A model generated the notes under the pieces. The model searched no databases. It was given only the letters and a program-made list of their open reading frames with translations, and was not told where the DNA came from. 5,427 bases of DNA from a virus (Duplodnaviria > Heunggongvirae > Uroviricota > Caudoviricetes): the IMG/VR virus record IMGVR_UViG_2534681662_000019; one strand, given 5' to 3'. Each line of letters opens with the position of its first letter. Positions within the stretch are counted from its first letter, which is position 1. This document shows positions 2,418 to 5,427 of the stretch, in pieces. The position numbers and the translations under genes were made by a program.

Positions 2418-2440
2418 AAGGCCCGTACGGGCCTTTTCTT
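2418..2440. terminator. Bidirectional rho-independent terminator between the convergent U and U' genes
   Basis: Hairpin aaGGCCC-gtac-GGGCCtt (2418-2435) followed by TTTTCTT on the + strand and preceded by an A/T-rich run (TTAATTTGTTGTT on the - strand). It sits in the 30-bp gap between the U stop (2406-2408) and the U' stop (2439-2441). Confidence 0.6.
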
Positions 2441-2975: not shown

Positions 2976-3848
2976 TTACACCTGTGCGACGTTATACCAT
3001 GTGCCATTGATGTATTTTTGTATTGGTCTGAAGATGGCTTCATCATCGCCATCTACTTCACCAATGATTCTTAATCCGGTAATTGCGTGTCCGGCTTTTT
3101 CATAACGACCACCACGCGCCATCAATTGAACAACACGCGTACCCAGGCGAACATCTTTCACATAGCGGGAATCAAAATTCCCCCAGTTGCTGGGTTGTAT
3201 CTGACCGTTAACAGCAAATATTACTGAGTTATCTGTATTTCGCTGACTATAGAAATGCCAGCCAGAATCATCGCCAAGCTCTGCAACAGTTGGCCTTGAC
3301 GAAGCGCCCCATAAATTAAACCCTACGTTCTTCGTGGAGTTGTTGGAGCTGGATAGCGTGAATTTTTTACCATCCCCGGCCTGAATATTTTTAAAAGCAA
3401 TAGCCACTCCATTCTGAAAGCGGAATACACGCTGACTATTAGCATAAACATCCAGAATACCGTCTCCATTCTGTTTAAATCCGGTGTCATTATCACCAAG
3501 AACAATAGAGCTACCACCTAACGCATTCGTCGTACCAACTCCAAGACTGCCATTAATGACGGCATTTACCAGAATATTTAGTGCATCCCATTTCAGCGTC
3601 ATCAGGTCTTTTGTTGTGGTGCTCTGGCGGCTTCTCCATTTGAAATATTCATTGCCGTTGTCGCCTGTTTCAAACCACATGTATGAATCAGTGTCACCAT
3701 CGGCATCATTTTTAAATCCAATCTTCGCCCAGTCAGTATTTCGAATCCAGGCAAGGATTGAGTCATTTTCAAAAGTAAGCCCACCGGACAAGGTATCGCC
3801 ATTTTTTTGCACGGCGTTACCAGCCTTGTTTACCGTTTCCTGCAAACC
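2976..3848 (-). CDS. S': S'v: promoterless, startless variable C-terminal cassette of the alternative tail fibre, expressed only after G inversion as an Sc-S'v fusion
   Basis: Minus-strand open frame homologous to Sv at both ends (QETVNKAGNAVQ... and ...GLRIIGEVDGDD...WYNVAQV). It has no ATG or RBS of its own; the ORF track's M at 3845 is a TTG that is the Leu codon of the shared ...NLGLQETV... junction. The frame is closed one codon outside the crossover by a TAA (complement of 3855-3857) within gixR. Confidence 0.85.
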   Translation of the reverse strand, partial: GLQETVNKAGNAVQKNGDTLSGGLTFENDSILAWIRNTDWAKIGFKNDADGDTDSYMWFETGDNGNEYFKWRSRQSTTTKDLMTLKWDALNILVNAVINGSLGVGTTNALGGSSIVLGDNDTGFKQNGDGILDVYANSQRVFRFQNGVAIAFKNIQAGDGKKFTLSSSNNSTKNVGFNLWGASSRPTVAELGDDSGWHFYSQRNTDNSVIFAVNGQIQPSNWGNFDSRYVKDVRLGTRVVQLMARGGRYEKAGHAITGLRIIGEVDGDDEAIFRPIQKYINGTWYNVAQV

Positions 3849-3870
3849 GAGGTTTTAGATAATGGCTGTT
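3835..3870 (+). promoter_or_regulatory. Candidate gin promoter overlapping gixR (-10-like GATAAT at 3858-3863)
   Basis: GATAAT hexamer inside the outer gixR half-site, about 55 nt upstream of the gin start; the -35 is weak. In the Gin/Hin/Cin family the invertase promoter is reported to overlap the adjacent recombination site. The exact hexamers here are my inference. Confidence 0.3.
3837..3862. other. gixR: gixR recombination site (TTCCTGCAAACC-GA-GGTTTTAGATAA), inverted relative to gixL
   Basis: Its reverse complement is TTATCTAAAACC-TC-GGTTTGCAGGAA, identical to gixL except for one base (C in gixL, T in gixR). Central dinucleotide at 3849-3850. Located between the S'v cassette and gin. 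Confidence 0.85.
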
Positions 3871-3916: not shown

Positions 3917-4510
3917 GTGCTGATTGGCTATGTAAGGGTATCAACAAATGACCAGAATACAGACCTGCAACGAAACGCTCTTGTTTGTGCAGGATGTGAA
4001 CAAATATTTGAAGATAAATTAAGCGGAACAAGGACAGACAGACCTGGATTAAAGCGCGCTTTAAAGCGTCTTCAAAAAGGTGACACACTGGTTGTCTGGA
4101 AACTGGATCGCCTCGGGCGAAGCATGAAACATCTGATTTCTCTCGTCGGAGAACTACGGGAGCGAGGGATTAATTTTCGCAGCCTTACTGACAGTATTGA
4201 TACGTCATCCCCAATGGGGCGTTTTTTCTTCCACGTTATGGGTGCCCTAGCTGAAATGGAACGAGAACTAATCATCGAGCGAACGATGGCAGGACTTGCT
4301 GCCGCCAGAAATAAAGGCCGTATTGGTGGGCGACCACCTAAACTAACCAAAGCGGAATGGGAGCAGGCCGGGCGTTTATTAGCACAAGGAATCCCCCGCA
4401 AGCAGGTTGCATTGATCTACGATGTGGCCCTGTCAACTCTGTATAAAAAACACCCCGCGAAACGAACGCACATAGAAAACGACGATCGAATCAATCAAAT
4501 CGATCGGTAA
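3917..4510 (+). CDS. gin: Site-specific DNA invertase Gin (serine recombinase, resolvase/invertase family)
   Basis: ORF starting at GTG 3917 with GGGAG (3905-3909) upstream. N-terminus MLIGYVRVSTNDQ has the catalytic Ser at position 9. The catalytic domain and C-terminal helix-turn-helix (GGRPPKLTKAEWEQA...) are characteristic of Gin/Pin/Hin/Cin. Located directly beside gixR. Confidence 0.95.
   Translation: MLIGYVRVSTNDQNTDLQRNALVCAGCEQIFEDKLSGTRTDRPGLKRALKRLQKGDTLVVWKLDRLGRSMKHLISLVGELRERGINFRSLTDSIDTSSPMGRFFFHVMGALAEMERELIIERTMAGLAAARNKGRIGGRPPKLTKAEWEQAGRLLAQGIPRKQVALIYDVALSTLYKKHPAKRTHIENDDRINQIDR
3960..4075. promoter_or_regulatory. Candidate Fis-dependent recombinational enhancer (sis) within the 5' part of gin
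   Basis: In Mu the enhancer lies inside the start of the gin coding sequence. Here there are Fis-like 15-mers of the G-N13-C type with A/T-rich cores, for example GAAGATAAATTAAGC (4010-4024) and GCGCTTTAAAGCGTC (4056-4070), plus a weaker one at 3962-3976 whose centre is 48 bp from the first. The Fis motif is degenerate, so this placement is tentative. Confidence 0.25.
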
Positions 4511-4518
4511 TACAGATC
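4484..4518. promoter_or_regulatory. Cluster of three GATC (Dam) sites upstream of the mom promoter: the methylation-sensitive OxyR (MomR) operator
   Basis: GATC at 4484-4487, 4502-4505 and 4515-4518, each within a GATCGA/CGATCG context, just upstream of the -35 region. In Mu, OxyR binds this region when it is unmethylated and represses mom. The sites lie inside the last codons of gin. Confidence 0.65.
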
Positions 4519-4520
4519 GA

Positions 4521-4572
4521 TTATGTCTCAATAACCACACTCAACCCATGATGTTTTTTAAGATAGTGGCGA
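4521..4572 (+). promoter_or_regulatory. mom operon promoter (Pmom): C-activator dyad, weak -35, 19-bp spacer with T6 run, -10 TAAGAT
   Basis: TTAT-N6-ATAA dyad (4521-4534); -35-like ACCACA (4534-4539); 19-bp spacer; TTTTTT (4554-4559) abutting the -10 TAAGAT (4559-4564). This is about 30 nt upstream of the com RBS and matches what I recall of the activator-dependent Mu mom promoter. Confidence 0.55.
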
Positions 4573-4592
4573 ATTGATGCAAAGGAGGTGAG

Positions 4593-4781
4593 ATGAAATC
4601 AATTCGCTGTAAAAACTGCAACAAACTGTTATTTAAGGCGGATTCCTTTGATCACATTGAAATCAGGTGTCCGCGTTGCAAACGTCACATCATAATGCTG
4701 AATGCCTGCGAGCATCCCACGGAGAAACATTGTGGGAAAAGAGAAAAAATCACGCATTCTGACGAAACCGTGCGTTATTGA
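4593..4781 (+). CDS. com: Com, zinc-finger translational activator of mom
   Basis: 62-aa ORF with strong RBS AGGAGG (4583-4588). Cys-X2-Cys...Cys-X2-Cys motif (C6, C9, C26, C29). Its 3' end overlaps the mom start by about 50 nt, as in the Mu com-mom operon. Confidence 0.9.
4715..4737 (+). promoter_or_regulatory. mRNA hairpin (translation-inhibition structure) sequestering the mom start codon
   Basis: UCCCAC (4715-4720) pairs with GUGGGA (4732-4737). The 11-nt loop GGAGAAACAUU contains the mom Shine-Dalgarno GGAG, and the GUG start (4732-4734) is inside the 3' arm of the stem. Consistent with Com-dependent translational activation. Confidence 0.55.
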
Positions 4782-5427
4782 GTATGAAGGCCAGATTGTT
4801 GGCTATGGTTCAAAGGAGCTGCGCGTTGAAACCATATCCTGCTGGCTGGCCCGCACAATTATTCAGGCAAAGCACTATTCCCGCCGTTTTGTGAATAACT
4901 CTTACCTCCACCTGGGAGTATTCAGCGGACGCGATCTGGTTGGCGTTCTCCAGTGGGGATATGCCCTTAACCCCAACTCAGGTCGTCGTGTCGTGCTTGA
5001 AACGGATAACCGGGGCTATATGGAGTTGAACCGCATGTGGCTACACGACGACATGCCCCGCAACTCTGAATCACGGGCCATCAGTTATGCACTGAAAACC
5101 ATAAGGTTACTGTATCCGTCAGTGGAGTGGGTTCAGTCTTTTGCAGACGAACGCTGCGGACGTGCTGGCGTTGTGTATCAGGCGTCAAATTTTGATTTTA
5201 TTGGCAGCCATGAAAGCACGTTCTACGAGCTGGATGGTGAGTGGTATCACGAGATAACGATGAACGCGATTAAACGCGGTGGACAACGAGGCGTGTATTT
5301 ACGGGCTAATAAAGAGCGTGCCGTGGTGCACAAATTTAATCAGTATCGCTACATCAGGTTCCTGAACAAGCGAGCAAGGAAGCGACTAAATACCAAGCTA
5401 TTCAAGGTTCAGCCATACCCTAAGTGA
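4732..5427 (+). CDS. mom: Mom, DNA adenine-modification protein (anti-restriction)
   Basis: Long ORF ending at the window edge. GTG 4732 has GGAG 7 nt upstream and gives 231 aa, the length I recall for Mu Mom. The in-frame ATG at 4702 (241 aa) used by the ORF track has no RBS. Overlaps com in a different frame. Confidence 0.85.

Follow-up and report, generated by a model that had tools for sequence, protein, structure and literature searches.

A late tail operon whose last genes lie in an invertible DNA segment raises the question of where its transcript ends when either of two gene cassettes can be placed at its 3'-end. In the locus studied here, the two cassettes end in convergent genes for tail-fibre assembly chaperones, U and U', and a single hairpin lies between them; a preliminary description of this DNA had proposed that the hairpin is a bidirectional terminator. 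The window, i.e., the whole stretch of DNA analyzed, is an IMG/VR provirus fragment of 5427 bp. Its nearest phage relative is Yersinia phage vB_YpM_3 (98.7% over the entire window), whereas Mu, D108 and SfMu match it in the constant parts only; the S'v-U' module is 91% identical to H-G of P2.

We consider it likely that the hairpin is an intrinsic terminator that ends the late tail operon (a transcript of the Mu P type) just downstream of the chaperone gene, whichever way the segment is oriented. The idea itself is already known: terminators are annotated at this site in the record of phage D108, a late transcript of Mu reportedly ends in the same region (see below for both), and a terminator is essentially the accepted interpretation. 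The proposal thus carries little weight as a discovery, and hairpins common to convergent genes are frequent in Escherichia coli. What is added here is a corrected geometry with predicted RNA 3'-ends, as well as population data for selection on a stem whose loop drifts.

The end of the late operon and the invertible segment

The window corresponds to the right end of a Mu-like prophage, with the gene order S, U | U', S'v, gin, com and mom, as established from a list of open reading frames (ORFs) and similarity searches. The terminal part of a baseplate gene (positions 1-330) is followed, on the + strand, by S (330-1865), the start of which overlaps the stop codon of the preceding gene, and by U (1881-2408). 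The product of U, a chaperone of 175 aa that belongs to the expressed module, shares 77% identity with Mu U and 78% with P1 U in tblastn comparisons; the stop codon of the gene is a TAA at 2406-2408. The silent module is on the - strand and is formed by U' (2439-2972; 177 aa), with the complement of its stop codon at 2439-2441, and by S'v (2976 to about 3850). Beyond it, gin (3917-4510), com (4593-4781) and mom (4702-5427), recognized as ORFs and from the homologous annotation in Mu, D108 and SfMu, occupy the same strand as S-U (3917-5427). A promoter search across the window revealed none that was evident; as the start codon of S also overlaps the preceding stop codon, S-U appears to be the tail end of a long, externally driven late operon, as in Mu.

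The segment is delimited by an inverted repeat, I2 (826-880 and 3808-3862; 95% complementary), which contains the gixL core (826-851; TTATCCAAAACC TC GGTTTGCAGGAA) and the gixR core (3837-3862; TTCCTGCAAACC GA GGTTTTAGATAA). Within these 26-bp cores, the central dinucleotides are at 838-839 and 3849-3850, and we take them to be the crossover positions on the basis of what is established for Gin and Hin sites. The segment then measures about 3011 bp and has its centre at 2344.0. The axis of the hairpin is at 2426.5, i.e., 82.5 bp away, so that the element does not lie at the exact centre of the segment, as had been stated; the corresponding distance in Mu is about 22 bp. The near-central location merely reflects two halves with equal gene content and is of no relevance in itself: the features that count are a palindromic stem and a flanking U-tract in both directions, located within the segment and between the convergent genes.

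Anatomy of the hairpin

The 30-nt gap between the convergent stop codons of U and U' is mostly taken up by a perfect 18-nt palindrome (2418-2435), present as such on both strands and formed by AAGGCCC (2418-2424), a GTAC loop (2425-2428) and GGGCCTT (2429-2435). The GC hairpin that had been placed between the two stops is thus confirmed. It begins 9 nt past the stop codon of U and 3 nt past that of U', and is therefore just downstream of the last gene of the transcription unit on either side. A scan for consensus terminators called the hairpin on both strands, with seven pairs, five of which are GC, and a 4-nt loop, as expected of the GC-rich RNA stem-loop of an intrinsic terminator. Folded alone, the spacer gave -12.2 kcal/mol on the + strand and -12.7 kcal/mol on the - strand (z-scores of -4.2 and -3.6, respectively). 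In the 5427 bases of the window, the hairpin is the sole perfect stem of at least 7 bp with at least five GC pairs; dinucleotide shuffles gave an expectation of 0.36 such stems per window, and in none of 300 shuffles did one fall in a given 30-nt slot. The hairpin is a real, non-chance feature. An Rfam scan of the window returned nothing at the hairpin and two chance-level matches elsewhere.

The flanks of the hairpin are T-rich on both transcribed strands, as the preliminary description had it, with tails TTTTCTTATTCT on the + strand and TTAATTTGTTGT on the - strand. The layout is that of a bidirectional terminator, in which a single palindromic hairpin lies between convergent stops and the A-rich 5' flank mirrors the T-rich 3' flank. 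However, the mirror is imperfect: the spacers differ in length (9 versus 3 nt) and the U-tract of the - strand is broken by AA, so the symmetry once ascribed to the element does not extend to its flanks. The U-side spacer (2409-2417) reads CAACAAATT and, on the - strand, AATTTGTTG, which would serve the leftward terminator as its proximal U-tract, with an interruption. The U-tract of the rightward terminator, TTTTCTTATTCTGG (2434-2447, + strand), overlaps the complement of the stop codon and of the last two codons of U'.

The hairpin is also the core of an extended near-palindrome (2399-2448), seen as an inverted repeat (I20), by folding and by matching the sequence to its own reverse complement. 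The outer arms (2399-2411 and 2436-2448) are 92% complementary. Because U and U' share the same ending, CCAGAATAA (Pro-Glu-stop), their final codons pair with each other in an outer helix of about 10 bp that encloses the hairpin; the extended fold, with this helix included, reached -22.7 kcal/mol (z-score of -5.1) on the + strand. The final codons and stop codon of each gene thus form one outer arm of the 50-nt near-palindrome and contribute to the U-tract that is used in the direction opposite to that gene. The homologous chaperone gene of P2, G, ends differently (..EMPQ*) and has no hairpin adjacent to its stop.

Predicted strength on each strand

The two directions were scored with a function of the d'Aubenton-Carafa type, in a script of our own that uses ViennaRNA energies, and for which a threshold near 0 is approximate only. 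On the + strand, which corresponds to the U transcript, the GGCCC...GGGCC stem with the U-rich tail TTTTCTTATTCT gave d = +23 (T-score of 4.21). On the - strand, corresponding to the U' transcript, the tail TTAATTTGTTGT gave d = -3, a borderline score due to the AA that interrupts the U-tract right after the GC stem. At least five T residues in eight, the looser criterion of the scan, were found on both strands. For trp t, rrnB T1 and lambda oop the scores were 29-36, which serve as a rough yardstick only. Judged by its score, the rightward (U) side is a strong terminator in this lineage; the leftward (U') side is weaker and probably either leaks or relies in part on Rho, which would act on the RNA further downstream, where there is no translation. 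The view of a terminator that serves either orientation fits the anatomy, the selection on the stem documented below and the annotation of both strands in D108; what cannot be kept is the idea that it does so equally, with d = +23 in one direction and -3 in the other.

In intrinsic termination, the RNA is released 7-9 nt past the GC stem. For this reason, the 3'-ends are expected at about 2440-2444 for the + strand and at about 2409-2413 for the - strand, instead of at 2435 and 2418 as had been predicted. The short distance to the stop codons may also have a bearing on efficiency. In a reporter system in E. coli, the lambda tR2 terminator was almost fully repressed when placed 8-9 bp from a stop codon, and regained its full strength, of about 0.9, only beyond about 30 bp, an effect that the authors put down to the terminating ribosome (PMC4824070). 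By analogy, the closeness of the hairpin to the stops (3-9 nt) may in itself reduce the efficiency of termination in the window.

The closest parallel is phage D108, in whose record (GQ357916.1) rho-independent terminators are annotated at this very place, at 33536-33563 on the - strand and 33548-33569 on the + strand; they are two of only five terminators annotated in that genome, and are program predictions rather than experimental results. D108 shares with the window the homologous U/U' position and the stem AAGGCCC/GGGCCTT, and the surrounding 217 bp are 80% identical. It differs in having an 8-bp stem (7 bp in the window), a loop of ATAG instead of GTAC, and hence a hairpin 2 nt longer, as well as a 5-nt U-side spacer (AAATT) where the window has 9 nt, and a + tail, TTGTTTCATTCT, that is poorer than the TTTTCTTATTCT of the window. 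The scores are +9.8/-0.9 for D108 and +23/-3 for the window.

In the GenBank records of Mu and P1, no terminator is annotated at the U-U' site. The 3'-end of the late P transcript of Mu has reportedly been mapped to the U-U' region, and the operon of Mu ends in the same manner as that of the window, with a hairpin of the same family (AAGGCCCG-ATAG-CGGGCCTT) that is separated by 5 nt from the stop codon of U and by 3 nt from that of U'. Relative to the window, Mu has a less favourable U-tract on the + side (TTCTCTCATTCT; d = -1.2) and a slightly more favourable one on the - side (TTAATTTTTATT; d = +0.9). Among 29 distinct spacer variants, most scored between -7 and +11 on both strands, and most members of the family, including Mu, are close to 0; a few (L049 and L050) reached about +19 to +24 on both strands.

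The inequality of the two directions in the window bears on an alternative in which the element is one-sided, i.e., an efficient terminator for the U transcript only, while the U' side would mainly pause the polymerase and shield the 3'-end from exonucleases, with release left to Rho on the antisense RNA beyond, which is not translated. The interrupted - strand tract (TTAATTTGTTGT) and the gap between the two scores are what such an element would show, and 3 nt past the U' stop the hairpin should be masked by the terminating ribosome (PMC4824070). In the downstream RNA of the - strand, C exceeds G (0.257 versus 0.187), which is compatible with Rho loading, and some invertible fibre segments have no intergenic terminator of any kind (see below). 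Against this, not only the stem but also the U-side spacer AAATT, the source of the leftward U-run, is conserved across the family (AAATT is found in 33 of the 44 contexts described below), which suggests that leftward termination is selected as well; moreover, the program used by the annotators of D108 called terminators on both strands, and the looser T-run criterion is reached on both strands of the window. On balance, we hold a one-sided element to be rather unlikely, and a terminator that works from both sides, with unequal strength, is the reading followed below.

The stem is conserved and the loop drifts

A spacer of 27-30 nt with AAGGCCCG-NNNN-CGGGCCTT separates the convergent chaperone genes of Mu, D108, SfMu, P1 and P7, and was also present in nearly all of about 80 IMG/VR provirus loci found with the U protein. 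Alignments and spacer tables show the hairpin of the Mu/D108/P1-type U-U' spacers to be a homologous sequence at the homologous position of Gin or Cin segments; for Mu and the window, identity is 81% over 217 bp spanning the site. Twelve variants of the hairpin occur in these relatives, with ATAG, CTAT, ATAT, ATAA, GTAG, ATTG or GCAT as the loop, and the hairpin in the window is 2 nt shorter than they are.

In an alignment of 260-nt contexts, the flanking coding DNA is itself 80-90% conserved; raw conservation alone is therefore uninformative and a comparison between classes of sites was required. In 44 distinct contexts with both frames open, nucleotide diversity was 0.000 for the 14 outer bases of the stem, 0.076 for the apical pair and 0.287 for the loop, as compared to 0.27-0.30 at third positions in the final 10-50 codons of U and U'. 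Since the stem is invariant while the loop varies like third codon positions, the alignments indicate that the non-coding stem is under strong purifying selection and that the loop drifts at the neutral rate. Among 23 distinct sequences, the helix of the hairpin is 97.8% paired and five of its eight pairs are invariant; no changes on both sides of a pair were seen and the covariation did not exceed that of shuffle controls, because the stem never varies.

Degenerate stems were found only in two loci (L040 and L090), both of which lack a convergent partner; three other partner-less loci (L012, L035 and L068) retain the hairpin. In L042-L044, in which the convergent partner has been lost, a different strong GC hairpin followed by a T-run is present at the same place and looks like a functional replacement by another terminator.

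With a stem that is invariant, selection could possibly act on the DNA sequence rather than on the pairing of the RNA. The element might then be a junction for the exchange of U/U' half-modules, a cruciform or a protein-binding site, with any terminator activity being incidental. The absence of covariation fits this view, as do the various combinations of the flanks (e.g., one U-side spacer is found with CTC, GTC, TTC or GTT opposite) and the occurrence of the module in Mu-like, P1-like and other backgrounds. Yet a patch of 18-20 nt is short for homologous exchange, next to coding DNA that is already 80-90% conserved, and the loop is free to vary, as would be predicted for an RNA hairpin; the replacement in L042-L044 is again a GC hairpin with a T-run. 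In addition, the known Gin enhancer lies in gin and not in the G segment (compare the annotation of the cin enhancer), which also counts against a role at the DNA level. Such a role is, in our estimate, very unlikely. A chance palindrome without function, for which one could invoke the frequency of weak terminator matches in the window (12 candidates in a lenient scan, as opposed to 5.6 ± 2.5 in shuffles), is effectively refuted by the rarity of such stems in shuffled sequences and by a stem that is invariant over the 44 contexts when neutral sites differ by about 28%.

The loops of the relatives include a pair of reverse complements: when the spacers are oriented alike by their flanks, Mu (L001, 2580-2599) and D108 carry ATAG, and P1 and P7 (L005/L006, 415-434) carry CTAT. 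The palindromic loop ATAT is also seen among the relatives. The ATAG/CTAT pair could have arisen by two substitutions via ATAT or by a flip of the loop through template switching within the palindrome.

We also considered the hairpin as an independent mobile unit, which was rejected as this module accounts for 15 of the 17 exact copies of the 18-mer in IMG/VR. The remaining two (L103, 5011-5028, and L100, 13902-13919) are in unrelated viral contigs; in L103, the 18-mer (AAGGCCCGTACGGGCCTT) is found 3 nt past the stop codon of an unrelated ORF and is followed by TTCTTTTG. These two copies look like convergent terminators that arose independently. Among the contigs with the exact 18-mer (L097-L113), the Sv-U/U' module and the identical hairpin are present without the constant part of S found in the window, and the match to gin extends over 143-594 bp only, which suggests that the module resides in non-Mu backgrounds. 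In 369 complete E. coli genome records, the stretch from 2300 to 2560 of the window (261 bp) has a counterpart of at least 99% identity, and 1661 of 5426 E. coli genomes contain it in some form; by these counts, the module is very common in prophages and plasmid-prophages of E. coli.

Transcription across the segment and comparison with other systems

In the mechanism that we propose, S-U or, after inversion by Gin, S'-U' would be connected to the constant upstream portion of the operon, and inversion would present the other strand of the hairpin to the same incoming polymerase. As the palindrome lies within the segment and between the convergent chaperone genes, the same DNA would give rise to an RNA hairpin followed by a U-rich tract in either orientation. 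Both orientations of the module relative to the invertase are present among IMG/VR contigs, so that both sides of the hairpin are used in nature.

The geometry also indicates what a stop at the hairpin would prevent. In either state, a polymerase that read through would first cross the silent cassette in the antisense direction, then gixR and then gin-com-mom in the sense direction. Termination would thus keep late transcription out of the silent cassette, the benefit put forward in the preliminary description, which is retained in the role proposed here and is incomplete in that read-through would also enter gin, com and mom in sense. From this arrangement we infer that shielding gin and the tightly controlled mom gene from the strong late operon probably matters no less than the avoidance of antisense RNA. 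The terminator would then act as a barrier between the very strong late operon and the gin, com and mom genes, while being approached from one side only.

The two sides might even be tuned unequally, with tight termination of S-U and a leak from S'-U', whose U-tract is interrupted and whose stop is 3 nt from the hairpin, into gin-com-mom, i.e., a read-through that depends on orientation. We think this improbable; if true, the levels of the invertase or of Mom late in infection would depend on the orientation of the segment.

A hairpin that serves a pair of convergent genes and can be lengthened by pairing of its A-rich and T-rich flanks is also found between ynaJ and uspE of E. coli. This bidirectional terminator performs poorly from one side alone and requires collisions of head-on and trailing RNA polymerases (10.1101/2022.10.23.513370). 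Whereas the ynaJ-uspE site is transcribed from both sides at once, the G segment has a promoter on one side only at any time, and for this reason each direction must work alone or with Rho as a backup. Head-on collisions cannot occur at the hairpin in the window, the silent module being promoterless. If the proposed mechanism is correct, the site would be a natural 'bidirectional' terminator that works without head-on collisions of polymerases, and it could serve as a natural test case for termination when transcription is not convergent and a stop codon lies within 3-9 nt of the hairpin.

Other fibre operons end in other ways. The putative rho-independent terminator of the V operon of P2 (AF063097.1, 15639-15666; L092, 740-767) resembles the element studied here in that it is located, at the end of a tail operon, downstream of a gene for a homologous fibre chaperone, G. 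Unlike the hairpin in the window, it is about 365 bp past the stop codon of G, is one-directional and unrelated in sequence, and lies outside an invertible segment. The invertible fibre segments of Fels-2 (L095), SEN8 (L093) and Citrobacter phage Chris1 (L094) have no spacer of this kind and no canonical two-way terminator: the convergent chaperone genes are 3 nt apart in Fels-2 and SEN8 and overlap by 14 nt in Chris1. A central terminator as a general trait of invertible fibre segments was rejected on these grounds. Presumably, Rho acting on untranslated antisense RNA suffices in these three phages, and it may back up the weak side here. In the Salmonella phage SEN8, an 11-bp hairpin (L093, 1410-1436) is found within the last codons of one of the chaperone genes (..DWPEKPAS) and is followed by TTAATTATTATT; in Chris1, an AT-rich palindrome of about 13 bp spans the overlapping stops.

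The invertase genes are also placed differently with respect to the hairpin. The gin gene of the Mu type (window, 3917-4510) points away from the G segment, whereas transcription of cin in P1 (L114, 1161-1721) runs toward the C segment and enters it in the same sense as Sv'-U'. Because cin points into the C segment, the hairpin of P1 can be met from both sides and, as read from this gene order, the shared hairpin meets different traffic in P1 and in the Mu-type phages.
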